64,000 nucleotides of DNA. Source: Argiope bruennichi (lineage: Eukaryota). The number at the start of each line of letters is the position of its first letter. Position 1 is the stretch's first letter. The notes beneath the pieces were generated by a model. That model was not told where the DNA came from. It worked only from the letters and a program-made list of their open reading frames with translations, and ran no database searches. The translations under genes were made by a program, and so were the position numbers. Shown here one piece after another: positions 12,880 to 53,358 of the stretch. The stretch covers positions 54,822,922 through 54,886,921 of the forward strand of contig NC_079163.1 of NCBI RefSeq assembly GCF_947563725.1, given 5' to 3'.

Positions 12880-13041
12880 CTGATACAATTCAGCAACTTC
12901 CATCCAGTCTGAAGGTAGTCTTATGCATGAATCAAAATACTTTTCTAAATAAGGACGTGTTTCTTCATGGTAAGCAGCATAAGACAAAAGAAAATTAGAA
13001 GCTGACCTAATATGAAGTTCTTGTCGACTAAAAAGAGCAAC
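12880..13041 (-). CDS. TROVE-gene exon (VALFSRQELHIRSASNFLLSYAAYHEETRPYLEKYFDSCIRLPSDWMEVAELYQ), acceptor TTATTTCAG, donor GTGAAT.
   Basis: C-terminal DWMEVAELYQ matches Ro60 GWKEVHELYKEK. It has the same 54-aa length as the corresponding Ro60 segment. Confidence 0.7.
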
Positions 13042-15649: not shown

Positions 15650-15784
15650 CTTTAAAACAAATTCGGGATCAAAAATCTTTACTTCGTCTGCATATTTCTG
15701 AATGGTTACCCGATAGTCATCCGCAGTGTTTTTCAAATTCGAATTATAAATTAATGCCATACTTGTGATATTCAAGAACTGCAT
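15650..15784 (-). CDS. TROVE-gene exon (MQFLNITSMALIYNSNLKNTADDYRVTIQKYADEVKIFDPEFVLK), acceptor ATTTTAG, donor GTATGT.
   Basis: Alignable to the Ro60 segment [25 protein letters not shown]...FTFIQFKK. Phase 0/0. Confidence 0.55.
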
Positions 15785-18894: not shown

Positions 18895-19046
18895 TTTTTT
18901 ATTCTTTACACTTCGCGCCCTCTCAAGTTGAAGTAAACTTGCCTTCGAGTCTACGAAACTAAATGATTCAAATGTTTCAGATTTAAACTCCTCTACAGAT
19001 GCAAAATTGTATGCAGGCATCTTGGATAACTCAGGTATCACAGTGG
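18895..19046 (-). CDS. TROVE-gene exon (PTVIPELSKMPAYNFASVEEFKSETFESFSFVDSKASLLQLERARSVKNKK), donor GTAAGTA.
   Basis: 152-nt open frame bounded by an AG acceptor and a GTAAGT donor. Phase 1 in, phase 0 out, matching the next exon. Confidence 0.5.
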
Positions 19047-21027
19047 CTACGTTTAGGGAAAGATATAAAAAAAAGGTATTTACCAATTCAAAAGTAAATT
19101 AAATTACTTAATACCTGAACTCTTAAAAAAGCAATAAGACGGAATAAAAATTTATCATCGATGAGATAGTAGTTACAGGGGGAGAGGGCGGATAATGTCT
19201 AAACTGAAATTCCTAGCAAACTGCTCAATGAGAAAAAGTAAAACATGCTTTTAACTGAAAATTCTCCTCTTGATTTCTCGGTACTATATACATAATTAGT
19301 TATAGTATTTGAAAATTTATTTTAAAACAACTTTAAAATTTAAGAAGACAAAGGCATTCAGATATGGAATAGTAGGTATAATTTCAAATTGACATTGAGA
19401 CAATAGAATGCACAATTTGCCTTCATGGTATTATATAACCTTTATTTTCAAAATTTCTAAAAAAATGCATAAGGATTTTTTTAATCAGAAATTTTACCTT
19501 ATTTTCTCAGAATAATTTGGAAGATTTCACTTATTAAAATCTAAATTAAATCCCTCATTACTTGTAGCAGACAATACTTTCTTCAACAGTACTTTCATTT
19601 CATAACCAATTAATAACCCTTTAAATTAGCAATAATTTTTTTAAGAAAGACTATATAATAATAAGACTTTATAAAACATTCTTTAATGGAACAACTAATG
19701 CATATCAGATACTCATTGCTTGAATATTTAAGTAAAAAGTTTAAAGTAATTAAACTCTATTCTGCAATAGTTTGTTACTTTTAGGAGTTCAAATAGAGCA
19801 AAATGTTCCATAAACGACATGTCTAAAAATGTTGTTTAATTCATGCATTTATTTGAAATGTTTTAAATTAATCTAATTTTTCATCAGGCCTTTTAAAAAA
19901 TATTCCTACTGAATTATTTTGAAAAATAAAGCAGATATTTAATGTTTCCATTCCTGCTCAATTTGGATATCTGTCTTCTCGCCAATTTTTCATAATTCAG
20001 AATCTGCATTTTCTTTATATCTTATCAGCGTAACAGATTTCAACCATTAATTACAAACTCAACACTTTTCCAATTCTAAGTATCTGAGCGTCTCGTTCAC
20101 CTTTTATAGTTTCTTTCAGATGCCATGAAAACAAACTTTTCATCAAGTATATGAACAATATATTCCGAAGGAAAAAAAAATCAAAACTTTATATTCTCCC
20201 TTCCTTATTAGTATGACTTTACACAAAGGTTTGCATCCAGTTTTAGGATGCAACTAATTGATAAACTCGGAGTTGCTTGGAATTAAGATACTTTCACATA
20301 TAATTTTTAAGGTAAAAACTTTGTATAAATTATTACGACTATCCCTTGAGCCTTTGTCACTTTTTTGCAGATAAAGGGTGCATTAATTCTTTCTTTCAGT
20401 ACTTTTAAACATCGCTAAATGACTACTTTAAGCCTAGAAAAATTTTCGAAAAGATATGAAATAGAATTTTTCAAAAATACTGGTAATGTAGACCAAATTC
20501 TCACTGTTACAGTATTTCATAATTTTCACCACCAAATATTTAAAGAATTAATAATGATTAAAGAAAAACTTGCACATAAAAGAATTGAGTGTCATTGAAA
20601 AGGCAAAATTTTGAATTTTAAACCAGTGTTAAAATATTTCTTCTAATATAATTTACTCTGAGGTTTCTGTAGAAAAATGGATACATTTCAATTAATTTTT
20701 AATTAATTCAATATTTTATTAGCTTTTGCACTTTGCAAAGTTGATAGTTTTCTCTCTCTTGTCTTGAAGAAAAAATGTGCAAAATTTGATTGAAATCAGC
20801 CCCATCACTTAGGAGATGCTTAATAAAAATATACGCGTACATATATACAATGACACACAATGATTTTTATTTACATTAAGATCAACATTGGGCAATCTTT
20901 GTGCTGATGATTAAATTTTCAAAATCGATTCCATAGTTTAAAAAAATAAATTCGAGCACAACTCTCAAATCCGGATAAATTACTATCCTAAATAAATACT
21001 ATATAGTACAATGAATATGACACTTAC

Positions 21028-21090
21028 GTGCACGTAAAACCGCTGAGCGAGGAATACCAGGAACAGGTGGCTCGAAAAAGCCCATAGGTG
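21028..21090 (-). CDS. TROVE-gene exon (TPMGFFEPPVPGIPRSAVLRA), 63 nt, acceptor TTATTCAG, donor GTAAGTG.
   Basis: Strong donor and acceptor. The frame is consistent with the exons on both sides. Confidence 0.45.
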
Positions 21091-21183
21091 CTGAATAAAA
21101 ACAAATTATTATGATTTTTTATTAGTTGAAAATTTCAGAGATAAAATAAATCGGTATTATTTTAAGAAAGATAATATACTCAC

Positions 21184-21234
21184 TCTGACGAATAGGAGAA
21201 GCTCCAAAAGCGAAAGCTCTGTTGAGGTTTCCAG
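21184..21234 (-). CDS. TROVE-gene exon (AGNLNRAFAFGASPIRQ), acceptor AATAG, donor GTGAGT.
   Basis: Phase-consistent with neighbours. It weakly resembles the Ro60 N-terminal RFLCFGSEGG segment. Confidence 0.45.
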
Positions 21235-21407
21235 CTATTAAAATTAATAATTCTTGTAACACATACATTTACTCCACAGTTATTCATTATAAAAGTAACC
21301 CGCAATTTTCAATATCAGCATGTTCCAATTATATTCTTAATAATTTTAATCTTAAATAACAACAATTGAAATAACCATTATTATAAAAAGAAACACATTA
21401 TACTCAC

Positions 21408-21458
21408 CGCGACGGTTAGGGACAGATCTAAAACGTTCATTTGGGCTTACATCCGCAG
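21408..21458 (-). CDS. TROVE-gene exon (ADVSPNERFRSVPNRR), acceptor TTTTAG, donor GTGAGT, phase 1 in and out.
   Basis: Only one open frame. The splice consensus sits on both sides and the phase chains with flanking exons. Confidence 0.45.
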
Positions 21459-21794
21459 CTAAAAGTTTAATAAATCTAATGTCAGCTTACTAATCTATAT
21501 TTATTGAAAAGCTATTCAGAATAAATTTATTATAAAATACAAAATGTACTACATGTTCAAGTCAAATTCTTAATAAAATTGTTGAAAAATGAAATAGTTA
21601 TTTATAATAAAATTATTCTAACGTGAAAATCTATTCAAAATCAGATAACCAATAACATATTTCACACAAAAAAAACCCTACTAATTAGCTTGAAAGAATA
21701 TAGAAAAATCTAGAAAAGAGTATGCGATTAAGAAAGCATTGACATAGAAAAAAAAAAGCCGTCGCCAGCGGCGTGTTTGTTTCTCTTTTGTCAC

Positions 21795-21816
21795 CTCCCT
21801 TGCTTCTTCCCGTCAT
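21795..21816 (-). CDS. Candidate first coding exon of the TROVE-domain gene: ATG ACG GGA AGA AGC AAG GGA G (MTGRSKG), then GTGACA donor, phase 1. A 5' UTR and promoter are presumed just upstream in the GC-richer patch 21750-21900.
   Basis: ATG inside a locally GC/CpG-richer patch. The donor phase matches the next exon. The donor is weak (GTGACA), so this is tentative. Confidence 0.3.
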
Positions 21817-22267
21817 ATTTGGTCAAAATCGAGAAACAAAAGCACTAACATTTGTCTTCAAGGCTATATTTACTCATAAGGGCGCACAGGGCATCTATAA
21901 GCCTCATTGCATCCCATCACTACACCATCAAAAAAATACAACAAATTAATCTACCTCTAAATTTATAAAAAAATTAAGACATTAAAATAAAAAAAAAACA
22001 TATTTTCACCGAGAAAACTATATTAATTACTTTATAATATAAATATATATTTCCATTTTCTGTCCCTTTTGATTATATCACCTACGCATTTAAAATAATT
22101 AGCAAAACCCAAAAACAATCCTCCAAACACTATTTTTATTTTATATGAAACCTTATACCTTTAATTTGACATCAATGGTTGCTTGCCTCTCACTAGCCGA
22201 AATTTTCAAGAGTTATATTTTAGAGACACTACCTCACACATTTCTCTATCGGGTAAAACACTGACAA

Positions 22268-22550
22268 AATCCCCAGCCACAACCATTGTACTGATTTCGC
22301 CAATTTTTATTTCATATGAAAGTTCAAGATCTCTATATACGCCATCGATAATCACCTGTCCCCATTATCCTTTCTTTTCCAAAAAATATCCAAAATACTA
22401 CATCGACATATATTTTCTATGGGGGGGGGGTAACACGACAGAATTCCCCCCAACCAAACCTAATGTATCGATTTTGTTAATTTTTATTTCATATTAATGT
22501 TCATGCACCCTAGATACACCAGTAATGGTCATCCTCCGTTTTCGTGAGAT
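22268..22550. repeat. Tandem duplication of about 185 bp in two diverged copies (...GATTTCGCCAATTTTTATTTCATATGAAAGTTCAAG... versus ...CGATTTTGTTAATTTTTATTTCATATTAATGTTCATG...). They are separated by a G10 run.
   Basis: The two blocks align at about 70 percent identity. Confidence 0.5.
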
Positions 22551-23289
22551 ATCATAAAATAAAACTAAAAGAGCTACCAGTCTCGACAACTTGATCAATT
22601 TTGACAATTTTATCCGCCTCTTTGTAATCATAGGTAAACTCATCACAGCAATTTATATTTATTGAGCTGAAGGATAAAAATTGTGAAAGTAGAATTTAAA
22701 ATAATATTTTCTATTTTTATGGTAAGATATAGTAGATAAACATTGGTTGATATGACACGATTAGTACTATTATTGTGGTGGGTGAACTCCTAGTCGCCCA
22801 GAATGGCTAGCATTTAAAGCTAAACACCAGCAATCAGTTGTTCAGGCCGTATTTCTGTTTCATTCGTATTTGGTACATTTAACGCTTTCGGCTAAACATA
22901 AACTCATCCAACACTCGGAAATGAAATTATTAATCAAAAAAAATAATAATAAATATTTTCTCATTTCGGAAACTCAAAAATGAGCCAGAGCGCTGTTAAA
23001 TAAATACTGCCCTGATTTGTACTACGCATTTTGTTCGCATTGACTTTTTCAAGGCGAACTTCAACAATGTCACGATCTGACTTTGGTTCAAAAAGAAAAA
23101 CCTGGCTAAACAATTGATAGCAGGGTTAACTTTTATTTTACGTTTAAGATAATTCACCAATAATTTCCCGAAAATAGCAATAAAAATTCATCGAAAATCA
23201 GGAGTCTGATTCATAAATGTTTTATTTCTCATGCACATAAATTGAAAAGCATTTATCGAGTTTTCGTCCAAATCCTAAAATAGCATTCG

Positions 23290-23940
23290 AAATGTCAAGT
23301 ATTAATCATTGGAAATCACAAGTATTGATAAAGTATTTCGGAAATGGAACAGATTTCATGAGATCGTCTTCACTTTTTCTCTTCTTTATTTATTCAAGCA
23401 TACAGTTTAAATCTGTTAGTGGTTATCACTATTTTTGGATCCAACCTTGTACTTCTCATGAATTTCTTAAACGTAATCTGCGATCCACCTCTTCATTCGA
23501 AATATTCCTTTTGTAACGTTCCCCCTTTCCCTCACCTGATAATTGGCATTCCAGCTAGATGTAACATCACCTGTTTCGCCACACATCGTTAAGTGCCTCC
23601 GGACTGCCAGATGGGGGATCCTTTTAGCCAGTAGTCATTGTGCCTGGGCATTTTTTGAATCCAGACAAAAGAACCACATATGTTGGTTTCGTCGTTTCAA
23701 AGAGATCCATCATACTCCTATCTTCAAGGGGGAAGAATGTCAAAACATCCAGATGTTAAATTTTTTTCCATTATAAAGAGATTCTTCCCATCTTCGAGGA
23801 ACGTTCAATCACCAGCCACTGTTGCCATTAAGTGTCGAAGTCGGATGGAGTTTAGCCGGTGTTATGAATCATTAATAAATATTTCCATGATCGACTGGAG
23901 ACCACTGAGGAAGCACTGCTGAGCTGCTATTGGGCGATAA
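23290..23940 (-). mobile_element. Possible mariner/Tc1-like transposase remnant.
   Basis: Minus-strand fragments KGIFRMKRWIADYV* resemble the mariner C-terminus GI.KL..RW.KCI..NG.YFE. CFLSGLQSIMEIF resembles HLFRSLQNFL. The remnant is heavily degraded. Confidence 0.3.
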
Positions 23941-23977
23941 TGAGCTCAAGTTCCCCAATGAGAAAAATCAGTAACGG

Positions 23978-24184
<207 letters not shown>

Positions 24185-27100
24185 TTCTCCGAATTGATAG
24201 AGGAACTATTTCATGATTAACTTTCAACTGTTGTGCATATTTTGTAAATAATATTAACCTAGATGAGAACAAGTTGTTTTGTGTACATATATAAGGCTGT
24301 AAATAAAAGAATTGTTTGTTACACTACTCTCTTATTTGATCCGTCAGGATCGACACATTAGACTTTAAAAATTCTTATTCCAAACATAGCATTTTTTCCA
24401 TTTATAATTAACTTTAATCTCTGATTTCAAAAATATGTTCATTTTTCACTATTTTTATCAAAGAAAAATTTGAGGCTTTACAAAAAAGCATAACTTTTAG
24501 AAGACAAATTTTCAAAGAAATGCATGCGACAGGTTTGGCGTAATTCTTTCATAAATGAAGAAATGAAAATATAATAATTATTTTGCATCAAAACAAAACT
24601 TAAAAAGATGCCCTGGTTCGTTTTTGAACTTCATATTTGTTGAAAGAAATTCCTACATTTTAGCATAGTTAATTTTATATGTCTGATAACAAACATATTA
24701 TTATGAAACAACTGATTAAGAGTGTTGCAAGAAAGAGATAAATAGCATTGAATCTTGGTCAGATAATAAAGTACACACCACAAAATGAAGACATTTATCG
24801 TCTAAACTAGAACTAACAACATAAATAAATTATATATCAGCAACAAAAGATCTTTAGCGGAATAGTTATATAATAACCATTCATTGCAAAGTTACAACTC
24901 TCTTCCTTACTAAATCACATTTAAGTACCAACAATATCGTCAACATTCTGACTAGGCAGACAGTAACCAGAAAGTGTTTCTCCAATCGGGCTCAAATGAG
25001 TTTAAATCCAGAGAATGGGATGGCGGTTTCAGAACTTCTTAATAGTTACTGAAACACTAGAGACGAATGTTGCGAGCTGTATGCTTAGAATCGATATCCT
25101 TCGTTAGGACTTTTTTAAAGTTGTTTCCAAATTCCAAATTTTAGAAAATAGATGTTTTTTTTTTTTTTTGTTTTTTTTTTACAAAGCAGCTGTGATTTAT
25201 AATGACATCCATAAAGTCCATCCTTTTTTTTTTCTCCACGCTATTGCACGCCATTTGTAATCAAAAATTTCAATTTGTTCTAATCTGCAGACAGGACGTA
25301 AGCCTAAAAAGATATTACTTTACTCATTAATGATTTCGAGAAGAAAAGTTAGATCATTCAGTTCATTCTCACAAAAAAATTATCTTCTGGCTGGATACGC
25401 ATGTTTATCTCAAGATTCGCACAGTTTCTAATGAAGCTGAAGTAGAAAAGTTTTCACTAAATTCTGCAGAGATTTTTAAAGCTGCCGACAGTTGATTCTT
25501 TGCAGTTTTTTCTCAAAATAAATCTCTGCTTACAACGAGGTTTTTAGCTTTGTAGAATTTCCGATTCGATTTTCTTTTCCATTATTTATCACATAATAAA
25601 CAGTTGAATACGATAAAATTTATCAGTTTAGCAATATTTAATACTCATTTAACACTTTTATGATGAAAATAATTAGATTTCTAACATCATCCATTGTTTC
25701 CTTAAGCTTAGAAACATTTTTAAACTACGAAATATTTTTTAAGAAATATAGAAGCAAAGATAAAACCAAACTACATTTAATATGTAATAAAAAAACAACA
25801 ACTACCAAACGATATTTAATATATCGTCATTACAAAACTGGAAAAGGAAAACAATTGACAATACTTTTTTTTTTCAATGAATTCAACCGAAAATGTATTG
25901 CTATTCGAACATTTTCATAACTTGTTTTTCTCTTGTCTATTTTGGTTTTTAGAATAAAACGATATCATCTTCAGATTAAAAAAATCATTGTGGTTATGCC
26001 TATCTATCTATGTATATATAGGTTCCACATCCCCACCTAAACTTGATCGAGTTCGACGTAATTTTGCACTTATTATTTAAGGTAAGAGAAAGAATACTGT
26101 TAACTTTTCAACGATCACGAGTTAATTAAAAATTCGATTAATAAGAAATTAACTAAAATTCGACCCTTTCTACACAGTAATTTCTGGGAAAATTATTCCA
26201 TAAGAAATATTTTAAAACCATTTTAATATTCAAAAATTTACAATTTCAATGATAATTTTATTTAAAATTGTAATTTTCGATTACCCATTTTTTAACATAT
26301 TTACAGTGGGAAATTTTTTTGCATGTTTAAGTTCTTTAGTGATTTGAAAATTATCTACTTCACTGTCTTTTTTTTTTTTTTTTTTTTGCAATTTGAGTTT
26401 TGAAGTAGAAGTGGAGGTACAAAAAATTAAATATATGCACAGCAACATGATTACGCAAACGTATACTTTCTTTCGTAACACAATTTAAATCAGCATTTCA
26501 GACAGCAGTTTTTTAAAAAAATTATATATACTACAAAAATTGGTTTTTCTGATCCCTTGTGGTTACTTAAATAATTGTTTTCAATATCGCTGCATCTTTG
26601 ATGCTCCATACAAAACAAAAACGCTATACACTTGACACAAACATCACTTCCATAACTTATACTCGTCTTTTAATTTTTCAGAAGAAACTCGCTTTCTTTT
26701 TGGCACTTTCGAAAAATCAATACTTATACAAAAAATTGAAGGAAATAACGAGAGATAAGTAAGCGATTATTTTGTTACACAGGAATATATATATATATAT
26801 ATAAGGTTGCAACAAGTGTGTGTGTACACAATGTTTTCTTTTATTGGCATTAATGACGAAAACTTTTTCAAATAAGTCGGATATTCCAAATTACAAACAA
26901 AATTTTCTCTCACAATTACTTCGGGCATTTTAGAGCTACACAAGTTTGAAAGCGGGACATATGATAATATTATTATAATCACTAATAACAAGAAATTTCT
27001 GGACAAAGTTATTATAAAAATATATTGATTAGTACTTAGAATACAATTTAATCGCAACACGTTTTATTTTTAATATTTCCTCAAAAAGCCTCTTCATTAC

Positions 27101-28739
27101 CATATAAGATACAACTGTCAAACTTGAAAGAAGCAATTTGAATTTGCTCTTCTTTCAGAGCAGCTGTTCTAATTTTGATCATGTAAGTGCTCCCCTTTTT
27201 TCCATAGTTGTTGAAGAAATTTAATATACACTCGAATCCGATATAATTTTTAATGTTCTTCTAAGATATGCAATGCGTTTCCTTAAAATATTTATGGTTC
27301 TTGCATGAATTGCAAGAGAGTTCATAAATTTAATTATAGAGTTAACGGCTATAACAATTGCATGCTTTTATTCCTTTAAACTTCAGAAACTCGTTTTGTA
27401 TAAATCCCTATTTTGGCTTATGCGTTTTTCTCAATGGTTTCAAGCTTTTTGAAAATTTGTATTGATTAAAGCGTTTTGGAAAGTTGTACTTATTTATTTA
27501 TTATTACATTTCGATATGAATAAATTTCTTCATAAAAATAATAAACTTGTATTTTCATCACTTTTTTTTTTAAATATAACGGATATTTTCTCAATAAATG
27601 GATTTATTGTGAAAAATAGGAAAATAACCTTATGACTTTTATTTTATTGCTTTCAAAAAAGATGTTTTGCGAACTTTTAAATGTGAAAGTGAAAAAAAAA
27701 TTAATTAAAAATACAGTAGCACTAACAAACATGCATTTTTCAGTTTTTCAACATTACAACTACCTTCACAATTTTAGCTTGAAATGAATGGTTGTTTTAC
27801 CTTCAAGCATCTTAAATTAAATCAACTTACTATGCATGAATTTTGTTTATATGGTCCAATAAATGGATATTCTTTCAATTATTATCCCTAAACAGAAGGG
27901 ACAGCTACATGTGATTATGCTAAATGCTTCATATAATATATATAAAAAAAATTAAAAATTTCGTACCAAATGTACTAAAGTACGGAAGAGGTTCTGGGGG
28001 TATATTTCTTTCCGATTCTGGAAAATCAGCATCTAAAAATGTATAAAATACTTCCATTAGAGTGAACGCAATTTTATTAACAATCCATTCAATTCAAATG
28101 CACACAAAAAATAATCATTAACATTTTCTTAAAACGCAACAAAAGAAAAGATTTTCAAAATTATAAATATTTAATCAACTTTAAATTAAAAAAATCAAGT
28201 TAATAAATAACGTTACAAGTCAAATATTCATAATTTCAGAGGCGGAAACAAAAGGACAATACTTAAAGGTACACAGGGAATAATGTCCTTTTGTAATTTC
28301 TTAATTGATCATAATATAGAATGTGAATTTATATTTCAAAAAGAACACAGTGAAAATTCCAAGAATAGGAACCACATACACACAAGAAAAGAAAAAAAAA
28401 AAAAAAAGGAAAAGGAATTTTATATCATAAAAGTTGAAAATATAAATATTACACAATATACTATTTTTTAAAGTGAATTGCATTTTTATAATACATGATT
28501 ATCAAAATATACTACCGTATTAAAATTATCTTATTCCTTGCGATGCAATAAATTATAAATGTACAGTTAATAAAAGATAATTTGAATGGTAATGAAAAAA
28601 TCATACCAGAAGAAACATTGTTAAAATGAGACATATAATAATGTCTAAAAATTTCGTTAGTCTCTTATATTATTACATTTAACCTTTCTAAAAGAGAAAA
28701 TTATTCAAATACAAAGCAAGCCCCAGTCATTTAAGATCA

Positions 28740-31440
28740 CATAGAGATGTGTGATGCGAGGTTTTGAAGAAAATCTTCTTTTATGCAAAAAAGAAACTTG
28801 TTTCATATGGCTTTGAAGTCTGGTTCAATAGAACAATTTACGTAATAAAGAGCTAGGACTCCTCCTGATTCAAAATTATGACGCCTTGCCAGATCCTTCA
28901 GCAAGGACCAGCCTCAAGTGGAAAGCTGCAATATTGCCCTTGACTCTGATGGTCGAATTCCTCAGGATAACAAAACAGCTGCGAACATATTGGGCAAATG
29001 TTATAAAAGCATAAGCCACTTGAGCTTTGCCAGAGATGACAAACAGTTAAGAAACAAAGCCAAAAAAATGGTCCATAATTGCTCTTTTGGGAAGTCCCAT
29101 TTTTTATGATCTATTCATGATGCACAAAATGGATGTTCCCCTTGAGGCAATGGACAATAGAAAATCTCCGGGACCAGATAATATCCATGGACTTATGGTT
29201 AAACAACTCGGTACTCAGGGAAAAGAAAGACTTTTAAAGATCTTTAATCTTTCATAGAAACTGGGCAGATTTCCACGGGAGTAGAAGCGGGCTATTATTA
29301 TCCCTTTCCTAAAACCTGGAAAGGATGCTAGCTCCGTGGAGAGCTTTAGGCCCATATCGTTGACATCTTTCGATTGCAAGCTCGTGGAGAGGCTTGTCCT
29401 GGCCAGGTTGAACTTTTATTTGTCCTCAAATGGACTGCTCCCAAAGGAGCAATATGGCTTTAGAAAAGGACATAGTACTATTGATCAGGTATTATTCTTT
29501 TGCCAGAACGTCAGAGATTCTCAAAACTTAAAACCAACAAACCACACTGTGGCTGTCCTTTTGGACATGAGTAGAGCTTTTGACAGAGTCTGGAGACAAA
29601 AGCTCATTACGAAACTTTATGATGGAAGGAAGAGCTCTGCCTTGGATTTCTGACTTTTTACAGCTCAGATCAATAAGAGTAAAAGACAAAAGTACTTTGT
29701 CTGACCCTTTTGGACTGAGACATGGATTACCTCAGGGGTCAGTATTGAGTCCGTTATTGTTTTCTCTATATATTGCTGGTATCGAAGAGGTAATCAGTAA
29801 TTACTGTAACGTGGGACTTTTTGCCTCTAACCTCAACTCTGCACTTACCGAGGTAATTGTTTTCGCTGAAACACATAAACTGATTTATCAGAGTCCTTGG
29901 TTACTTTCTTTACTACCAACAGACGACTTTATAACTACCACCCAGGTGTCTTAATGAATGGCTGTCAATTAAATTATGCAAAAAATGCCAAATACTTGGG
30001 CTATGTTCTCGATCAAGAGATATTGAGCAACAAACATATAGAGGCTCTTGTCAATAAATGTAGGAAAAGACTCAACATACTTAAATATATTTCTAGACGA
30101 GATTGGGGTGCAGATGTTAATACACTGAGAACCACCAACATCTCTCTGATCAGATCAATTCTAGTGTATGGTTTTCCAATTTACTTTTGTGCCTCAAAAG
30201 CTAACTTAGACAAACTTGAAAGAGTGCAATTAAATGCTTCAAGAAAAATTACTGGCCTTCGTAATAGCTCCACTAATGATATTGTACTGTACAAGAATGA
30301 ATGAAACCACCTCTTTCTCTGAGAAGAAGAAACTGTCTTTCAAAATATTACAACAAGATCTTTAGCTACAATGATCAGCACAGAACTTCTGCTTATACTC
30401 ATTCATGGCATAATAATAAGCGTTTAAAGAAACACCGCCCTTTTTTCTTCGCAAAAGAGATGAGTCTACCTTCTGGAGATCTGGAACCACATTCCTTAAA
30501 GCCTTATTGGAATTTTAAGTTTCACCCTGATCGAATTCATTTCCATACTGATCTCTTGGCCAAGATTAGCAAAAAGTTAGAGTTACCTGAATTATTAGAC
30601 AAATGTCTCTGGAAACAATTCATAGCATTCCATCTTCAGCTCTGAAAATGTACATTGATGGCAGTAAAGGAGATGGCGTGCACATTGAGACTCCTGAAGG
30701 AGCTACTGATATTTTGATTAGAAATCCTGTCAACTGTATTCAGGTCCGAACTTATTGCAATCTAAAAGGGACTTCAATATATCGACACGTTCTCTGAAAT
30801 TGTCTTCGGGAACATTTGGATTTTAACGGACAGTTGTGCCTCTATACAGCACCTTCTCATTGGACGAAAGTGGGGGACAAGATTAGCATGAATATCTCAG
30901 ACCTTATTGCCAGGCTCTCCGCTGAACATTCTATACACTTTCAGTGGGTTCCCTCACAAGTTGGTTTAAATGGTAATGAGACAGCGGATAACTTAGCTAA
31001 GACTGCCTCAGCTGACATATTTCATGGTGATGCAACCCTAACTTATTCTGAAATTTCACCTATCAAAAAGATGGAATCGAGTGCACTTTGGAGAGTCCCA
31101 CCTGCCCACCCTTGGTACTTCGGTAAGAGTCCCGGTTGGTGTCATCGTCCGAATATCTCTATAAAACAGCAAACGGCTGTCTTTCTCGTTTTTTGAGTGG
31201 ACACACCAAATCCCTCACCTTCCAACACGGATGAAGGATCTTTGCTGAATGTCCTTGGTGCAAGGCAGATCAAGCCTCCCCCAATCATATTCTTAAATGT
31301 TTAAATTTTACAATTTTTGAGATTTTAAGGTATCCGCTTTCGTTTTTAGACTTTTTAGAGATCTTTGGTTTCATGTAGGTGGTATAGCGCAGGCTATACC
31401 ACCTGGGATCAGAAACAACAACAACATAATAAAGATGTTG
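28740..31440 (+). mobile_element. Degenerate, 5'-truncated non-LTR retrotransposon (LINE, I/R1/LOA-like clade). It carries a reverse transcriptase, RNase H and a C-terminal Cys-His motif, with multiple frameshifts and stops.
   Basis: RT motifs SPGPDNIHG, AIIIPFLKPGKDASSVESFRPISLTSFDCKLVERLV, FRKGHSTIDQ, AVLLDMSRAFDRVW and YLGYVLD. RNase H motifs YIDGSKGDGV...ADNLAK. C-terminal ...HTKSLT...ECPWCKADQASPNHILKC. The ORF is broken across at least six frames. Confidence 0.8.
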
Positions 31441-33544
31441 AAAATGCTCAGAGAGATTAAAAAGCATAACAAACATAAAACACTGTGTATACAAAAGCAA
31501 TGCAGATATTATCCGTCTATTTGCCCAAGTGTGAAGGATAATATTAAATATAATGAACTACATTTTTTTAAAAATAATAATAGATGAATAAATAAAACTT
31601 TTTGAAATGTTTCTCTAAAAAGTCATGCATAGATTTTGATAGCAATAAAGAAGTGGAAATATATATATCAATGCTGCCAAATTAGATAGGGAAATTAGGG
31701 AGGGTAATAGCCAAATGCAGACAAAAGGAAATTGCCAAAGAACAGAAATCCAGGTAAAAAAGGCAAACTTCAGTTCATTTATTCAGCTGAAGATAATACG
31801 ATTTTCTAAGTTACTAAGCATTCACCAAAATGAGAAACAATGAAATAGACCTATAATAGGTGGGCGCACAAACTTGTAAAAGGACAAGATACAAAAGCTG
31901 TCTGTCGATGAAATATATAAAAATTTGCAAATATAGGATTTTATTAATACTAGGAAATGCAGAAATTATCTTTTTGGTTTGATGCCAGAAGTAAATATCG
32001 ATGTTGTAAAGGATATTTCTTTTATAAACAAAATTTGCACATCTAACAACGGTTTTTCATTTAACTACTATATATATGCCTATATATATATATATTATTA
32101 AGCCTTAACTCAACACCTAATGCAGGCAAATCATATTTATTTGTAACCATTTCTTAAAATTTGAGAAATAAGTCGCAACAGAAATTTTAATGTGAAATAA
32201 ATAATTCAGAAATTATTAAAAACTACCAGAAGCACTAAATAATCATCCAAATAATAAAAACTCGCTTATTAGAACAAATAATGAACAGCGATTGAGATTA
32301 AATATCATCTTTTTCTTCAAAACTGTTTTATACAAATGCTCATTACTGTTTCTGTCCAATTTGTTCCACCTTTTTCATTCATTGCACAAATTATGTTTTT
32401 TTGCAAAATCTTTTAGTTCCTTTTTATATTTCACTTTTCACTTAAAAATGGTTTCTGGATTATTTTTGAAATATAAGATTTTTTTAATTTTAAGTAAAAT
32501 TTGTATTAATATTTTTCCATTCACAGTTATTACTTCAAAACTTATCAATTGATAGTTATTATTTTGTAAATTACGAAAACCTTTGGGTGAGTCGGAGAAG
32601 CCATCGTATTATACACATCAGTTTAACACATATTTAAGATGATTATCTTGAAACAAGTGGCACAAAAATTTATATTCGGCCATTTTAATCTCTCCTATTG
32701 CCAGAATTAATTACTAAATTAAAATAACTTTTTATTCATCAATACTAAAAATTATTTTTAACATAAATTTTTTTTAAAAAAATCAAGAGAAATATTTAGG
32801 CATAAGAACAATAATTCAAAATCTGTCATTTGAGAAATGCTACAGACCAGAATAGTTTTAAAGTTTTCAACACATTTCCAATGCTTTTAAAATATTTTGT
32901 CACTAATCCGAATTGAAAATTTTGAAAACAATTACCATCTTTCTCTAATGCATCACTAAGTCAAATCTTAGTAAAATAGAATAAGCACTAAAGAATTTAG
33001 GAAAATCATTACACAATTAATCAATGATTTCAATAATAAACTTTAATGCAACATTAACAATAAAGGAAATTGCTATTCCATTTTATATGTCAGAATACTA
33101 CACTACATATATCAATACCATCAAATTAAGAAATAAATTGTTATTAATTAATTAAATGATTAACTAAAATTTAAGTATAGCACCAATTTTTCTACTAATC
33201 AAAAACAAGAAGCTGAATACTTTTCTCTAGTTTCTAAAATAATAATAATAATAATTAAATGAGGGTTAAATCTTTGTTTTCTGAGCGATTTCACATTTTC
33301 ATGATGCTTAGTAATAAATTTTTAGAGTATAATACTGCCATATATTAAGTGTATTCAAACTAAAAATAAAATTTAGCTCTAATAAATAAGTTATTTAGCC
33401 TGCACTAATTCAGTAATAAAATTTGACTTGATTTAAGTTAGAGCTATACAAGGACTATTTTGAGATGGACCAACTAATTTTGGCCTATTTCAAATAACAA
33501 GAATACCATTTGAGCCAAATCTCTCTCAAAACCTCCTAGGCAGC

Positions 33545-33690
33545 ATCAAGAGGGGAAGACATAATCTTGACAAAATTAATGTGCACTAAACATACACACA
33601 TAAGAGCTCATTGGCGGAAGCAGGAATGAATCTGCAATCTTCAAATCCCCAAGATGAGTCTACCACCAAACTACTATAAATGGGATAAAA
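33545..33690 (-). other. Degenerate tRNA-like or SINE-head sequence (...GGTGGTAGACTCATCTTGGGGATTTGAAGATTGCAGATTCATTCCTGCTTCCGCCA).
   Basis: The T-arm-like GCAG/CTGC stem and the CCGCCA tail resemble a tRNA 3' half. There is no matching acceptor 5' strand. Confidence 0.3.
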
Positions 33691-34154
33691 GATGCAAACT
33701 AATATAGCTGAAAGCAGATTCAGGTTCATATTAAAAATAACTCATCAATATTTTCAGCATTTTAATGACATATCTCATATTTTATCGATTTGCAATTAAA
33801 AGATTAAATATTTTTAGGAAATTAGCTATAAAACAACGTTCCACAACAAAAATAAGCAAATCAATTCACAATAATAATAGTGCAACAATCGACAGTAGAT
33901 AGTGGTGTAACAAGGATAAGCATCAATTAAAGATGTTTTTCCCTCCTAGCCATTATCAATAATAGCTTAGAAAGGATAAATGGTGCCAGGAGCTTGTTAT
34001 TATTTTTTCATCACCTCATCATATCAGACTAAAAAGTGGAATAAACACAATAACGTTTCAACTACATGGTAACCCTAAGAACAGCGCATGGAACATTTAT
34101 AACTCCCTTGCCTTCTAGTCGGTAGAACTCTGGTAGTAGAATTATTTTTCCTCA

Positions 34155-34342
34155 CTAAAAAGACTCACCCCTATATCTGATGTATTCAGGAGCCTTAGAG
34201 CAGTATGAAGGAGATGCAGGACTATATGAAGGAGATGCTGAACAGAGAACAGCTGTTTGACCAAACACAGCAGGGGCAGCTGTTTTTGAAAATTTTGATG
34301 ATGGTACATCTGCAAATCGTTCTGCTGCATAATCAACTGCAT
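34155..34342 (-). CDS. Unassigned gene, exon 4 and apparent stop (YAVDYAAERFADVPSSKFSKTAAPAVFGQTAVLCSASPSYSPASPSYCSKAPEYIRYRGESF*).
   Basis: Acceptor CTTTTCCAG. The frame reads through to TAG at 34155. An alternative GGG|GTGAGT donor at 34167-34166 would instead continue the gene downstream. Confidence 0.55.
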
Positions 34343-35039
34343 CTGGAAAAGAATTCGTCAATAATTGAGTATCTTTTTAAATAATTTTCTTTGGAGAAAA
34401 TATATAAATATTAGCATAATGTTAATAAAACAGTCGACATAATTATCATGCAAAAAATTAATCCTAAAAATAGGGAAACTAATCAATAAATATTTAAAAG
34501 AATTATTTATAAAAGTCCATTGGGTAGTTAGGTTCACTAAAAGAAAAGAATGGTGAATATATGATTTAGTATAGAAAAGTAAACTATTACCATCATTTAA
34601 TGAAAAGCCACAAGGTTCACCAAACTCCAATTCATCAGCATCTATTTATATATTTAAAAATCAGCCATGAATCATATTTACATACGAAATGAAAAAAAAT
34701 TAAAAGGCAGTTTAACAGATAAAAGAAAGCAACATTACATGAATTTGCGTTTAAAGTTCTTTCTCATACATACAAATTTCCATTCATAAGGGAGGTGGGA
34801 GAGGGTGGATAATGCTTATACAAATTAATTTTGTTAGTTAAAGTAATATCAATAATTTTAAGATAAATATTGAAGGCAATTTTCAGTTAAGATCTCATAA
34901 AACATGAACAATTCTAAAATAATAGCATATTTTTCTTTTGACAATACATTCAATGCAAATTAACATATTTCATTTTTAAAATTAATATTTTGTACAAGAA
35001 ACATATGTAAGAGCAAGCCTTTTGATATATTTTGTTAAA

Positions 35040-35155
35040 TTAATTTATTTAATTGTTAAATTGGTAATTTATTTATTTCTTAAATTACTAATTTATTTAT
35101 TTGTTAAATTACTAATTGATTTATTTGTTAAATTAATTTATTTAATTTAATTAAA
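35040..35155. repeat. Minisatellite of about 4-5 units of about 25 bp (TAAATTACTAATTTATTTATTTGT), in intron 3 of the unassigned gene.
   Basis: Directly visible. Confidence 0.7.
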
Positions 35156-35222
35156 CACACATATACAGCTTCCATACAACATGTGCTACTCAATGACAAC
35201 ATTTCAGCAGACATCAACTTAC

Positions 35223-35360
35223 ATGTATCTGAAACTGACTCCCTTGACCTTGACCTAGACATGGAACGAGCACATAGATATCTATGCCTCGTGCGACGGT
35301 ACATAAGTTTCTTCTTCTTCTTTTTCTTAGCAAAGATTTCTTTCTTTTCAAGAACTGGAG
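35223..35360 (-). CDS. Unassigned gene, exon 3 (PPVLEKKEIFAKKKKKKKLMYRRTRHRYLCARSMSRSRSRESVSDT), acceptor TTTATAG, donor GTAAGTTG.
   Basis: Phase 1 in and out. Encodes a Lys-run followed by an RS-rich segment. Confidence 0.6.
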
Positions 35361-36369
35361 CTATAAACAATATGATAACATTTTAATAATCTAATAAATA
35401 TGAAAATATAAAAGGATAAATCATTATTATATTTTGCAACAAATATTTAAGAAAGATTTGTAATACTTATATATGTTAGGACTACTTAATAATTTGCATA
35501 AAAGTTTATCTCAAATGAAATTTTTTTTAAATTTTACTATGAGAGAACAAAACGGATATAGTAAATATGAGGTTAAACTAACTTTTGCACAAGAATTCTG
35601 ATACCACCAGAGCATGATGACTGTAAAATTATTATATACAAAACACTGGAAAATTTCAGCAATAGTTATGCATCAAAAATAATGACCACAGTTATAAAGA
35701 AATTTCAAAGACAAATCAATTACCTGGATGTGTAGAATGCTCAAAAATTACGAATGCAAGAAAAATACAATTTATACAAAACAGAAATTTCGCTTATACT
35801 TTGACATTGATAAGTATAAATATATATTAGAAATTAAAAACATTATTTTCAAAACGGTCACAATAATTTCCAAGAAAAGTATCTCAAGATTCTTTAATTA
35901 TTATACAAAATAATGAATGTTGCCTAAAAATAATTTTATTTGCTAAAACCAGTGTAAGGGAATTAATTGGAAAAAAAAAGTAAGGCACGAGGTTTCATTT
36001 CAAATTAGTAAAAATCTTTTAAATATAATGCATTTAAAATACAAACCGAGGGAAATATTATAAAAATGATCTGCTTTCATTAACTTATTACGAATACAAA
36101 AAGTTCCGCATTTTCTTTTAAGTCTGCATAGGAAATAAACTATATGATTGTGAAACATAAAAAAAATTGCTACTATCTCAAAATAAACTATTTTTTAAAA
36201 AATGCTTTAATTCTATCTAGCACACAAAGTCTTTTTCTATAACAGAAATGAATGAATTATTAAAGCAAAAGTAGATTTATTCAATTAAAACATTTACAAC
36301 AATGATTGGGTTGTTAAAATCCCATTTAATAATGACACACCAAAAAGGTAAACAAAATAAATGTCTTAC

Positions 36370-36497
36370 GCTTTGGCAGAAACTTGTTTACAGTGCTTGT
36401 TAATGCATTGTTTTCATTTGTTAAGCTTTCTAAATAAGATGAGTAAAATTTCCTTTTCCTAGAAGGAATAGCAGTTCCAGATTTCAGATTACAAATG
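36370..36497 (-). CDS. Unassigned gene, exon 2 (SICNLKSGTAIPSRKRKFYSSYLESLTNENNALTSTVNKFLPK), acceptor TTTCATTACAG, donor GTAAGAC.
   Basis: Single open frame. Phase 2 in, phase 1 out. Confidence 0.6.
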
Positions 36498-37921
36498 CTG
36501 TAATGAAACATATCTGTTCAATTAATTATATATAAAACTTGTTTAAATTTACCAGACAAATGTTATACATTTTGGTAAAAATTTTATTTATTTTGCCTGT
36601 ATAAATTTTAACAACAGAAACACTGCTGAATTCCTTAAATAATAATAATAATTAAAAAAAATTACTTTACATGCATAAAATTAACCCAACAAAGGAACTA
36701 AGACAACATATTTCTAAAACAGCATCCTCATTAATTGCTTACGTTAATTTACATTTAGTATAATAAATTTAATGACACACTTATGCAATCAAGAATCAGT
36801 TTCTGATTTTTTTAAATCCATTGGAAAAGATATGAAAATAAAAGTAAATTATTAAAAAATAATTACAATTCAATAAAACAATTTCAATTATGTTGATAAG
36901 ATTAGCATTTTAAAACAACCATCTCATGCATTTACTCACAGCATATCTAGTGGTAATAACTCTCCTTTCTGAACTCTTTAACTCCTCTAACTCTCCTTTA
37001 TGAAATTTTAAAGCATAAGAAGAAAAATACAACATAGTTGAAAGATATACAAGAAAAGGTTAAATATATATGAAGTGTGGATATACATAAATGTATGCTG
37101 GTGCTAAGATAACCAAATTTGGCATATATATAATTTGCAAGGTGAGAATTTATTTTTTTAAATTTCGGCAAGAATTAATAAAAAATTAAGTGAAAGTTTG
37201 GCATTTTCCTATGAAAAGCTTTGAAAATATTACTGTAAAAAAGGGACTTCTATAAATTCTTAAAATTCAAATATAAATAATTTCGATGAAATTAATTCTG
37301 TTATAAAGTTTTTTCCTTAATTTTAATAACTTTTAAAAGTATTTAGAAGCTATACCTTTGACTGTTGTAATGAAATTCAAATTGTTTTTTCTGCTGCTAC
37401 AAATATTTTATCCCGAGTCTTTCTTCAATTGTTGATAACCAAGGTATGAAGATTTGACTTATTTTTTTATATATTGACTCAGTTTCTTTCAGCATTCAAT
37501 AAAATTTTTGAAATTTTTAAAAACTTAATTTTATAGCAATAATAAATCAAAACTTCAGAAGTAAGCAATGATGACATTTTTTTTTTTTTTAGAGATTGTC
37601 TATTTTTTTAAAAACAATGTTGCTTGTTCTAGTGCTATAACAGGATACATAAAAATACATTATTGCTATTTTAGATTGAAATTTATTATTGCTGTATTAG
37701 GTTGAATTCTTTTTTATTGCATCACTTTAATTCACTTAATGACTTAAATTCTTTGAAATATTACATAAATAATAAAATATATTCAATAATAGACACAAAA
37801 CTTCAATGTTAAATGAGTCCATTAATTATCATATCTTTTTATGCTTCATTCAGTAAGAAGTTACTGGATTAGTTGATGTTTAATCTGTTTCCATTCAGCT
37901 TTAAATCTTAAGATATTTTAC

Positions 37922-38046
37922 CTGTTAAAGGTAGCTCCGTCCAGTAATAAATTTCCTGACTCAGGTTCCAAGAGGAATTTATTTTTTGTAGATGTTAGAG
38001 GTGTTTCTTTCAATAAAGTACTTTCAAATGATGTGTTAGCCATCAT
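37922..38046 (-). CDS. Unassigned gene, exon 1 CDS (MMANTSFESTLLKETPLTSTKNKFLLEPESGNLLLDGATFN), ATG at 38046, donor CAG|GTAAAAT, phase 2.
   Basis: ATG with upstream non-coding sequence. A strong donor sits on it and its phase matches exon 2. Confidence 0.55.
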
Positions 38047-41000
38047 GATGACACTGAAATACAATAATAAATAGAAGAATCAGAATTTTAAAATATTAAA
38101 AATTATAATAAGAAATTCAGCTATAATTAGTTTATAAATTATATGAAACAAATTCTTGATGGAAAGCAAAATTTTTAGATTTCAATTTTAAAAAGATGAA
38201 AAAATTTGAAAAATTACCAGGCACATAAAGAAGTGTTACCATAATGGGATATCTTAAAACATGTTAACTCTTTTCTATTTGCAAGTGAAATAGGGGGGGG
38301 GGGCTATATATAAATGCACCTTAAAGTAAGGCTTTTTATTTTTAATTAAGAGTTTTTCAAGCTTCTTTAATCTATTCAAAAATAATTAAGAAAACAATTT
38401 TCACTGAAAAGATTCCATTAATTTAATTAAATTCCTAGCTTAAATAAATTTTCATAAGTTCATTAAATAAATTTTATTTCATTTTCCTTCTTTATATTTT
38501 CTAACTTTAGGATAACAAACTTTTTCGTAAAAAAGACTTTCAAAAATTTTTTACATACTGAAAAGAGATTTCAAGAGTAAATGTTCAAGAAGCCTAGATA
38601 CAGATAAATAGAGAAAAATGAATAATAGAATAACAAAGAAAGTAAATGCCATTAAAATTTAAACTATTATTATTATTATAAAAGTTTATTAAAGTTTAAT
38701 ATTAGAGTATTATTATTAAAGTTTTTTAACTATTATTATTAAAGTTTAAAGAGAGAGAAAAGTTTCATACCTTTTGCATGCTGAAATGGCTCTTGTTAAT
38801 AACCAAAGAACATATGTTTAGTAAGTTTACTAGTAAATAACAGTTTCAAAAATCTTACAAAGAGGATAGAAATAACTAAGTTTTTATGCTAAAAACAAGA
38901 GTGGATTAAGCCTCCAGGATGTTCTAAGACATTGCAAGTTTCAAGGTCCCAACTTTCAAAGATATTTTTTTTTTTTTTTTTTTTTTTTGTTTATTTTAAA
39001 TATATATTGATATAAGTAGTTTTATACAACAAAGTTTGACAAACTGGAACTGCAAATTAATTTCAAAAGAGTTGGTTTCATCACTTTGTGAATAAGAAAA
39101 TTTAAATTTAAATGTGATTTTTAAAAAAAATACAAAATCGATTGGATATTTATTTAAAAATAAAGAATCACATTTTTTTAGAATTAGAAAAAAAATAATA
39201 TAAAACTTACAGAGAGTAATTAATTCAGAATGTTACTAGAATAATGTTCTAAAATTTAAGTAATATTTGATTTAAATTTGTGTAAGTTTAACTATATGGC
39301 CTTTATCATTAAATAACAGCAAAAAAAAAAAATTTTCTTTTAATTCAAAACATCATAAAAAGTCTCAAGGGTTAGATGTTCCTTAAGTCTTTTGAGCCTT
39401 TAGACAATTAATTACCTACTTTAACTATTTAAAAATCCAGCTCTGACCAAGAAAAGACTTAAATCTGTCCTTTGTAATTAAAACATTAAAGGATGAAAAT
39501 GCAGCAATTTCTATCAATGTAAATACTATCACAAAAGATCACTTTATAAATAAATCTAGATTTAAATTTATACTCATTTATTTACTTCAATATTTATACA
39601 AGAAAAATCAGTGATTTTTTAGACAGAATTAAACAAATTTTGTAATGAAAAAAGCACTGTGCATTACTAAAAAAGTAGTACAATACATCAGTATAACCAC
39701 TCTTCATCTTCAATTAAAAAAGTATAATTCAGTTACAACTGAAAATAATAAATTCACATACATGAAAGCAAATTTCAAAAAATCCTGTCATACTACATAC
39801 TATTACTAAACTATTGTTCTAGATCAGATAACTGATTTATATGAGAAATATAAATTTTTTCTTCAAGTTACATTTTCAAACCAAGAAAATTTTCTCAGTC
39901 ATATTGAAAGAATCCAAAAGAATGAGATCCTGTAGTAATTTTTATGATTTGTAATTAGAGATTTTAGTTCTTGATTTATCTGCAGTGTTTGAAATTCCCT
40001 ATTTATTAAAAATAATTTTAAAATAAAACTTTTTTTTTTAATTTTAAAATTTTGGATTGCACTGATGCAACACATTAATGAAATCTTACTCTATTTCTTT
40101 ATAAAAAATAAATAAAATTTAATAAATAAATTGATAATAAAGTGATAAGTTTGTTTGAAACAAAGCCTTTAAACGTGATAACATTGATATAAGTAATTTT
40201 AATATATTATAAATAAATCAATATTTATTCAGAAATAACAAATTTTCAAAATGATATAGGCACTTTCATCCATCAGTAATAAAATAATACAAAAAGTTAA
40301 CATATAGTTAACAATACAATGCAGGTATATAAATAATCTTCAAATATAAAATTTGAAATAATAAAGGACTTAAAGCACACTTAAAATGAGGAGAAAAAAA
40401 GACTTTCATTATAGTAATACAGATGACAATGGTAATTGCTGCAAGGTCTGATTCTAAAGAATTAAATATAAAATCTTTCACAAACTATCAAAAATTTATT
40501 CAGCTGGAATATGTTCTCATAAATCAATAATAATGTCATTTTTAAAAATATAGACAACTGATATGCAGAGAAATCTAAACTAAAAAAATTAACTAATAAA
40601 GAATAAACATTATTAAATAAACTTTAGAAAGTCTTGGTATTCTTTTAAATGACTTAATATTTTTTACTATTTTACCATTTAAAAATTTATTACATGGATA
40701 GCTATTGAGGAGTTCTCTTAAGAGTATTTTATTAAAACTCTAAGACACAAACATAAATAAAAGCTGACTTAAGCAGTATGATAGTTTATAATATTGTTGC
40801 AAACACTGAATATCATAAAAACATTAAGCAGAAAACTTCAGCAACAAAGAGCCTTGAAAATATATAAATGCTGCATATATATAAAAATCACTATTTAAAA
40901 ATGAGTAAGAGAATTTTCACAAATAAGTATGAAATATCAAGGCAATGCCTCAATTTCTTATTCCTGTATTTCTTTGTGAAAAAAATGCTGGAATGAAGAT

Positions 41001-53265: not shown

Positions 53266-53267
<2 letters not shown>

Positions 53268-53357
<90 letters not shown>
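53268..53357. repeat. (TA)n microsatellite, about 45 units, located in intron 1 of the agrin-like gene about 228 bp past the donor.
   Basis: Directly visible. Confidence 0.97.

Positions 53358-53358
<1 letters not shown>

Follow-up and report, generated by a model that had tools for sequence, protein, structure and literature searches.

TEP1 (telomerase protein component 1) is a vault-associated protein with TROVE, NACHT and WD40 domains that binds RNA in both vaults and telomerase. The mammalian-type protein carries four 30-residue repeats in an N-terminal extension, and the Pfam accession of the model for this repeat is presumably PF05386. The TROVE fold is also found in Ro60 and the bacterial Rsr proteins (e.g. 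PDB 9l5y, 9kop), which differ from TEP1 in having no N-terminal extension. Recent reports describe the DUF4062/TeTIR domain of TEP1 as a TIR-like NADase (bioRxiv 10.64898/2026.05.01.722283; 10.64898/2026.09.21.753143).

The window analysed here, a 64-kb stretch of DNA from an araneid (orb-weaver) spider, contains four minus-strand exons that are, with little room for doubt, coding exons 1–4 of a spider TEP1 orthologue, with exon 4 ending at 34169 and the ORF resuming at 19046 to continue into the TROVE domain. The identity of the gene is thereby one already known, and the exons do not represent a new family. As in mammalian-type TEP1, the encoded region is a poorly conserved, repeat-bearing N-terminal extension placed directly before TROVE in a gene of the same identity, but the spider protein has two short motifs of ~12 residues in place of the longer repeats. 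The sequence-only reading had regarded these exons as a complete 192-aa gene of an unrecognized, possibly lineage-specific family, whereas their product makes up the N-terminal extension of TEP1, which is poorly conserved and forms one ORF with TROVE.

Two TEP1 proteins are used for comparison throughout. P0032 (GFS98075.1 / UniRef A0A8X6N736) is annotated as 'telomerase protein component 1 [Nephila pilipes]' and is itself a gene prediction. P0078 is a 2612-aa ORF from an intronless 8.3-kb transcript contig (Logan SRR2155568) of another species, an arthropod; it has in-frame stops 5' of its ATG and the architecture TROVE-DUF4062-NACHT-WD40. The window itself reaches only as far as residue 688 of the orthologue.

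Structure of the first four exons

The minus-strand exons 38046-37922, 36497-36370, 35360-35223 and 34342-34155 sum to 579 nt, and translating the chain from the ATG at 38046 reproduces the previously quoted 192 aa exactly, followed by a TAG. Each of introns 1–3 starts with GT and ends with AG, with a pyrimidine tract before the AG. The four exons, their frame, the ATG and the splice phases had thus been read correctly. The GC content of the exons is 0.32–0.42, compared with 0.23 across introns 1–3, a contrast that is typical of real exons in a genome with a GC content of 27%.

Exon 1 (37922..38046) encodes residues 1–41 and supplies codon 42 with its first two bases; it has a second ATG at 38043. 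It is 63% identical over 27 aa to residues 24–50 of Nephila pilipes TEP1. Residues 17–28 (37963..37998) form the first copy of a short motif, LTSTKNKFLLEP, which corresponds to PLTCTKNKFL in Nephila and to PLTNTKNRLLLE in P0078. Upstream of the ATG by 7 nt, a strong acceptor AG can be read from the sequence (38054..38055, ttgtatttcag), and this probably marks the end of an intron in the 5' UTR. Exon 2 (36370..36497) is entered in phase 2. The motif of exon 1 returns at the boundary of exons 2 and 3 as LTSTVNKFLPKP, with 9 of its 12 residues identical. This second copy, LTSTVNKFLPK(P), comprises residues 74–85 (36370..36403), its last codon being finished by exon 3, and the collinear Nephila counterpart is NALLSTKNKFL. 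Exon 3 (35223..35360) contains a run of seven lysines (35328-35308) and the RSMSRSRSRESVS patch (35268-35230). The three aligned TEP1 proteins all keep the lysine run, and Nephila also keeps SRSRSR-SVS. Exon 4, by its most likely splicing, occupies 34169..34342 (174 nt), ends AGG G/GTGAGT and leaves in phase 1; its TAAPAVFGQTAVL aligns to 'APSAVFGS...AQTAVFGS' of Nephila.

The recurrence of the motif bears on whether the chain is coding at all. Single stop-free runs of 50–80 codons do occur randomly in 64 kb, and fitting GT/AG pairs can be picked out by a reader, so that reading frames and apparent splice sites might be imagined to have lined up by accident in AT-rich DNA that codes for nothing. 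However, the 9/12 identity was reached by none of 2000 shuffles, and at seven of the nine identical residues the codons differ between the two copies, including Ser TCT versus AGC. The motif has thus been kept with different codons, which together with the shuffles places the frame of exons 1–4 beyond chance. The exons are also richer in GC than their introns, and they show collinear homology with two TEP1 N-termini. The probability of a chance chain is consequently next to nil, and this explanation is effectively refuted already.

Probable continuation of exon 4 into the TROVE domain

The donor at the end of exon 4 had been considered before as an alternative, at 34167. The present analysis favours this donor, with its position corrected: the GT lies at 34168-34167 and the exon ends at 34169. 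The TAG previously taken as the end of the gene (34155..34157) is intronic, 12 nt into intron 4, and would be read only on retention of that intron. Intron 4 (19047..34168) is 15.1 kb long; within it lie a fragment of a non-LTR retrotransposon in antisense orientation and a (CA)n microsatellite.

On the far side of the intron, exon 5 (18895..19046) follows the acceptor ccctaaacgtag, is entered in phase 1 and encodes ATVIPELSKMPAYNFASVEEFKSETFESFSFV; it is 51% identical to P0032 residues 274–320 (E=1.6e-10). The phase-1 donor at 34169 fits this phase-1 acceptor at 19046, joining exon 4 to exon 5 in frame. Exon 6 (15650..15784) encodes the N-terminal part of TROVE and is 72% identical to P0032 residues 320–365. 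The domain continues through exon 7 (12880..13041), which by itself matches Pfam TROVE with E=5e-14, exon 8 (11956..12052), exon 9 (11664..11781) and exon 10 (11266..11423). These are followed by exons 11 (9778..9887), 12 (6130..6281), 13 (4462..4624), 14 (1883..2038) and 15 (1343..1438), all on the minus strand, and the gene runs on beyond the left end of the window.

Joining the 15 exons as a GT-AG chain from 38046 to 1343 gives a 688-aa ORF with no stops that leaves the window at the left. Pfam recognizes TROVE in this joined model from residue 233 onward (E=9.6e-59). The proposal that the donor near 34167 is used and that the gene continues downstream, previously offered as an alternative, is supported by this ORF, by its TROVE domain and by the alignments to P0032 and P0078 described below. 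Phase, splice consensus and orthologue collinearity together suggest that the 34169→19046 junction is used in vivo.

The length of intron 4 raises the question of a second product, in which full-length TEP1 would be accompanied by a short isoform ending ...RYRGESF, in effect the N-terminal tail of TEP1 on its own, made by retention of intron 4 or by polyadenylation within it. Very long introns generally favour premature cleavage and polyadenylation, this one measures 15.1 kb, and the retained-intron frame stops four codons on. However, by eye no canonical AATAAA is seen in the first ~1 kb 3' of the TAG, a word-indexed search of the protein collection gave neither a copy of the 192-aa product nor anything resembling it, and the other species give no sign of such an isoform. 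A short isoform is therefore considered highly unlikely.

Similarity to TEP1 of other species

An exhaustive protein search with exon 10 as the query gave P0032 as the best match. Aligning model residues 1–688 with P0032 residues 26–767 gives a single HSP with 52% identity; it emerges with composition-based statistics switched off and also with Smith-Waterman, while BLASTP with composition-based statistics reports the N-terminal HSP alone. Taken by itself, the 192-aa product matches the N-terminus of P0032 with E=4e-6, and the identities for exons 1–4 are 17/41, 15/42, 21/45 and 22/57. The match to P0078 extends from model residues 9–688 to residues 6–727 (E=1.8e-142). The opening residues of P0078, SLLQKRSPLTNTKNRLLLETE, match STLLKETPLTSTKNKFLLEPE of the window, and its N-terminus begins at the position equivalent to the ATG at 38046. 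Collinear counterparts exist for every one of the four exons: the MMA start, both copies of T-x-NKFL, the run of lysines, the SRSRSR-SVS patch and AVFG/QTAV.

The Nephila protein and the window model are collinear from the MMA start through TROVE, with both copies of T-x-NKFL, the run of lysines, SRSRSR-SVS and AVFG/QTAVFG in common. The Nephila protein differs in having 25 more N-terminal residues before the shared MMA, two blocks with ~80 more residues in the low-complexity part that leads from exon-4-like to exon-5-like sequence, and three xAxFGS repeats in the place taken in the window by the SPSY duplication (see below). Ahead of TROVE the two proteins are only ~40% identical. P0078 similarly shares the N-terminal start and the lysine run, has three N-[KR]-[FL]-L motifs, and then continues with NKMPVYHFAS and TROVE; its overall identity is lower (38%) and it lacks both the RS run and the SPSY element. 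The TROVE fold common to Ro60 and Rsr corresponds to model residues ~273–518, and the PDB comparison gave no match to model residues 1–272.

The differences from Nephila could mean that the TEP1 model still lacks coding exons: at least one small one between 34169 and 19046, or one 5' of 38046. The 25 residues ahead of MMA in P0032, its extra blocks and the strong acceptor 7 nt 5' of the ATG would all be in keeping with this. Nevertheless, when the corresponding stretches of P0032 and P0078 were compared with intron 4 by tblastn at permissive settings, nothing rose above noise (best E=0.13, on a lysine run) and no intermediate exon was detected there. The direct 34169→19046 join is in frame, and P0078, which is transcript-derived and has stops upstream, begins at the equivalent of the window ATG. 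Missing exons are for these reasons thought unlikely. Across the full 64 kb of the window, Rfam and tRNA scans gave no hits.

When the 192 aa were compared with 5.8 billion proteins by word-indexed search, nothing came up at E<=1, and exact-ORF look-ups of the window ORFs gave no matches. The result of the word-indexed search is not taken as evidence for an orphan protein, because a TROVE query with the same tool also missed spider TEP1.

Position relative to agrin

In Nephila the start of TEP1 lies 2.5 kb from a divergently transcribed NtA/Kazal agrin gene, with no gene called in between. In the window, too, agrin and TEP1 stand head to head, the agrin NtA exon lying at 52608-53069 on the plus strand. 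TEP1 5' exons are absent from the 10-kb (or 5.4-kb) upstream flanks of agrin in Larinioides, Caerostris and Trichonephila clavipes. The TEP1 gene of Nephila spans 104 kb.

This arrangement, with the homology above, bears on the reading in which the four exons form a stand-alone gene that stops at the TAG at 34155 and encodes an orphan 192-aa nuclear protein, separate from a downstream TEP1. The ORF does end cleanly in that TAG, the GC content is mildly raised for ~700 nt further downstream (33.4–34.2 kb), as it might be in a 3' UTR, and Pfam recognized no family in the product. However, in Nephila and in the transcript contig of the other species alike, the homologues of these exons open the TEP1 protein and share an ORF with TROVE, and Nephila has no annotated gene between agrin and TEP1. 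The TAG follows a consensus donor whose phase fits the next TEP1 exon. A separate gene would also leave TEP1 without a start, since no credible initiator lies upstream of exon 5 and the protein extends further towards the N-terminus in the orthologues. We consider a stand-alone gene extremely improbable and retain the assignment of the exons to TEP1.

The SPSY duplication and other resemblances

The 'CTD-like' element of exon 4 is a direct duplication of 21 nt (34197..34238, minus strand) in which 17 of 21 positions are identical, the units being 34238-34218 and 34217-34197 and coding for ASPSYSP/ASPSYCS. What had been described as SPSYSPASPSY repeats is thus merely two copies of one unit. Tandem Repeats Finder reported nothing in exon 4, the pair being too short for reporting. 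In the alignment the duplication is present in neither Nephila TEP1 nor P0078, and it is a species-specific event.

Three families were examined as possible sources of these resemblances and rejected. For the heptads of the RNA polymerase II CTD, Pfam RNA_pol_Rpb1_R scores 10.7 bits (E=0.73) against a cutoff of 20.3, and the two copies stem from one 21-nt duplication that neither orthologue has. Membership of the SR proteins or RS-domain splicing factors is not indicated, as the 192 aa contain no RRM or other Pfam domain; the RS stretch consists of four dipeptides within the SRSRSR-SVS patch conserved in TEP1. Similarly, for the SPT2 chromatin protein the N-terminal domain model PF22878 reaches 16.8 bits (E=0.012), below its cutoff of 26, and it is the lysine-rich stretch that is matched. 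With Pfam scores below the cutoffs and no RRM, no family membership follows from the 'CTD-like' and 'RS' likenesses that had been pointed out.

The N-terminal extension and its motif

Exons 1–4 encode a low-complexity N-terminal extension of ~190 aa before TROVE, containing two short T-x-N-K-F-L copies, an NLS-like lysine run and an SR/acidic serine patch. The folded TROVE/vWA module of TEP1 is the part that binds vault and telomerase RNA. The tail is most likely intrinsically disordered and may present short docking or regulatory motifs; both the disorder and any function of the motifs are predictions.

The Pfam model of the TEP1 N-terminal repeat gave no listed match at E<=10 in the protein of the window, in P0032 or P0078, or in eight further TEP1 N-termini. 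The human repeats contain S-L-E-N-R-C-L, which resembles an N-x-[FLC]-L core. In 29 TEP1 N-termini the core N-x-[LFCIM]-L, a pattern picked after inspection of the data, was observed 68 times against 11.5 expected. It is a tentative suggestion, rather less probable than its opposite, that the tails preceding TROVE in animal TEP1 share an ancient, recurring short linear motif, of which [ST]-x-x-N-x-[FL]-L would be the version seen in arthropods. The function of the N-terminal repeats could reside in this same motif, for example in docking to the vault or another partner.

Implications

The candidate 'orphan' gene is struck off, and the TEP1 model in the window gains its 5' end: a start codon at 38046, a fourth intron of 15.1 kb and at least 15 coding exons over 37 kb. 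The case illustrates a common trap, in that fast-evolving N-terminal extensions of large conserved proteins score below the thresholds of domain databases and, where a stop codon follows shortly after a splice donor, such an extension can be mistaken for a separate small gene. Among arachnids the N-x-F/L-L motif, the lysine run and the serine/arginine patch are the sole conserved features of the TEP1 tail, and this narrows the place in which to seek its function. If the suggestion of an ancient motif is true, [ST]-x-x-N-x-[FL]-L would give a concrete, mutable handle on the TEP1 tail.

Exon structure and coding signal

The four minus-strand exons at 38046-37922, 36497-36370, 35360-35223 and 34342-34155 were re-derived from the sequence. 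Together they comprise 579 nt and translate into exactly the 192 residues reported by the sequence-only reading, followed by a TAG. All internal exon borders follow the GT...AG rule and have pyrimidine-rich acceptors, and the GC content of the exons is 0.32-0.42 as against 0.23 for the three introns (whole window about 27%). The exon 1 motif LTSTKNKFLLEP reappears as LTSTVNKFLPKP spanning the exon 2/3 junction; the two are identical at 9/12 positions, a value attained in 0 of 2000 shuffles. Seven of the nine identical residues use different codons (Ser TCT vs AGC; AAT AAA TTC CTC vs AAC AAG TTT CTG), and the recurrence is an internal signature of protein-level constraint in the exon frame. Exact translation, splice borders, GC contrast and a motif recurring with diverged codons thus confirm the exons, borders and frame originally described, which are not a chance chain.

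Homology to TEP1

Minus-strand open segments below the four exons resemble the TROVE domain of TEP1, telomerase protein component 1. The exon at 13041-12880 (minus) matches Pfam TROVE (E=5e-14) over profile positions 62-119. As the match begins at position 62, some 60 TROVE positions and the entire pre-TROVE region had to be encoded farther up the minus strand, in the direction of the four exons. An exhaustive protein search with one contiguous TROVE exon of the window returned as top match P0032 (GFS98075.1, 808 aa), annotated as 'telomerase protein component 1' of Nephila pilipes. Another match, P0078 (2612 aa), comes from an 8.3-kb transcript contig that lacks introns and carries stops ahead of the P0078 ATG; the protein contains TROVE, DUF4062, NACHT and WD40/TEP1 propeller domains.

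The sequence-only reading had proposed a homology search of the 192-residue product and recognised no family for it. In local BLASTP against 178 retrieved proteins the product matches only P0032 (residues 26-86, E=4e-6) and P0078 (residues 6-69, E=0.005), and since these are TEP1 N-termini the family is no longer unrecognised. In a three-way alignment of these proteins all four exons have collinear equivalents, which comprise the MMA start, '(L)KETPLT-x-TKNKFL', KRK and a second 'NALLST-x-NKFL', and further on a lysine run, 'SRSRSR-SVS' and 'AVFG...QTAV'. The exon 4 blocks are followed by 'KMPxYxFxS...ESFSFV' (window ORF 19046-18895) and then by the TROVE domain. On this homology the four exons are the 5' coding exons of TEP1. 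The exon 4 region (34145-34357, minus) also holds a second open frame of 71 codons (MQLIMQQNDLQMYHHQ...), taken as chance because homology to Nephila TEP1 backs only the frame first described.

Three other family hints were rejected. The 'CTD-like' SPSY element consists of a 21-nt unit present twice (17/21 identical); it is absent from P0032 and P0078 and scores E=0.73 against Pfam Rpb1_R. The RS run amounts to four dipeptides without an RRM. Neither resemblance, both raised previously, denotes family membership. A match to Pfam SPT2_N is under threshold.

The TEP1 gene model

The donor GGG|GTGAGT, already flagged as a possible alternative near 34167, ends exon 4 at 34169 in phase 1. Its phase-1 counterpart is the acceptor ccctaaacgtag| at 19046, through which the exon matching P0032 residues 274-320 is brought back into frame; we therefore infer a 34169 to 19046 junction for this species. 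With exons beyond exon 4 placed by GT-AG sites under tblastn guidance, 15 exons from 38046 to 1343 give a stop-free ORF of 688 aa. This ORF matches Pfam TROVE (E=9.6e-59), P0032 in one HSP (1-688 vs 26-767, 52% identity) and P0078 in one HSP (9-688 vs 6-727, E=1.8e-142). Identity to Nephila TEP1 is 17/41, 15/42, 21/45 and 22/57 in exons 1-4 and 48-81% in later exons. Continuation of the gene through this donor is thus supported. It was instead read as a complete 192-aa gene, which does not hold, as the exons form one ORF with a TROVE domain and, given the 34169 to 19046 splice, the TAG (34157-34155) sits 12 nt inside a 15.1-kb intron. Retention of this intron 4, or polyadenylation within it, might yield a minor short isoform besides full-length TEP1, which we consider very improbable.

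A permissive search of intron 4 for a missed exon gave only noise. The intron carries a fragmented non-LTR retrotransposon at 29336-31196 on the plus strand, antisense to TEP1, inside a GC-rich block (about 28.7-31.3 kb); its ORFs are frameshifted and match Pfam RVT_1 (E=6e-17) and RNase_H (E=3e-5). A (CA/GT)n microsatellite of roughly 120 dinucleotide units (about 23950-24200) creates spurious ORFs of 80-125 aa in several frames. At the 5' end, a strong minus-strand acceptor (ttgtatttcag|, AG at 38054-38055) precedes the start codon by 7 nt, which implies a putative untranslated first exon upstream of 38055.

The agrin neighbour

An agrin-like gene has its first coding exon, encoding a signal peptide and NtA domain, at 52608-53069 (plus); it was recognised by protein identity to spider agrins (95% to the orb-weaver Larinioides sclopetarius, 83-85% to Trichonephila and Caerostris). 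These identities assign the window to an araneid spider. Window DNA at 52068-53073 is 82% identical to 9444-10448 of the Larinioides agrin locus (L002). Agrin and TEP1 are transcribed divergently, as in Nephila pilipes, where 2.5 kb separates the TEP1 start from a divergent NtA/Kazal agrin gene and no gene is called in that gap; the intergenic region in the window is 14.5 kb. This synteny agrees with the TEP1 identity suggested by homology; both the gene and its arrangement are already known.

Within the intergenic region, a GC-rich island at 44200-45400 (GC 0.36-0.48) has ORFs of 70-100 aa on both strands and no match in a Pfam search, and could be a degraded repeat or promoter-associated sequence. 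Just outside it, a 109-nt stretch (45788-45896) is probably a dispersed repeat, matching at 73% within a Larinioides agrin intron (L002, 32624-32730). Immediately 3' of the agrin exon, a (TA)n simple repeat (53155-53476) produces mirror-image ORFs on both strands.

The N-terminal tail

In TEP1, N-terminal repeats precede an RNA-binding TROVE domain, vWA, NACHT and WD repeats; the protein binds vault RNA, whose association with vaults depends on it, but telomerase activity does not require it (PMC7916137). Recent preprints report that the DUF4062/TeTIR domain of TEP1 is a TIR-like NADase within a STAND architecture (bioRxiv 10.64898/2026.05.01.722283 and 10.64898/2026.09.21.753143).

The product of the four exons is the spider counterpart of the TEP1 pre-TROVE tail. 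The motif N-x-[LFCIM]-L, a pattern picked post hoc, occurs 68 times in the pre-TROVE regions of 29 TEP1 proteins, where 11.5 occurrences are expected, an enrichment of about six-fold. No match to the Pfam TEP1 N-terminal repeat was listed at E<=10 for the window protein, P0032, P0078 or eight other TEP1 N-termini. For both reasons, homology of the spider motifs to the mammalian TEP1 N-terminal repeats is a lead and not a result.

The spider tail is basic (pI 9.9) and rich in S/T and K/R, and matches nothing in the PDB. By charge and hydropathy it lies just past the boundary into the disordered range, with the TROVE part on the folded side. The tail is most probably intrinsically disordered and would present short motifs, namely two T-x-N-K-F-L elements, a K7 run resembling an NLS, and an SR/acidic-serine patch.
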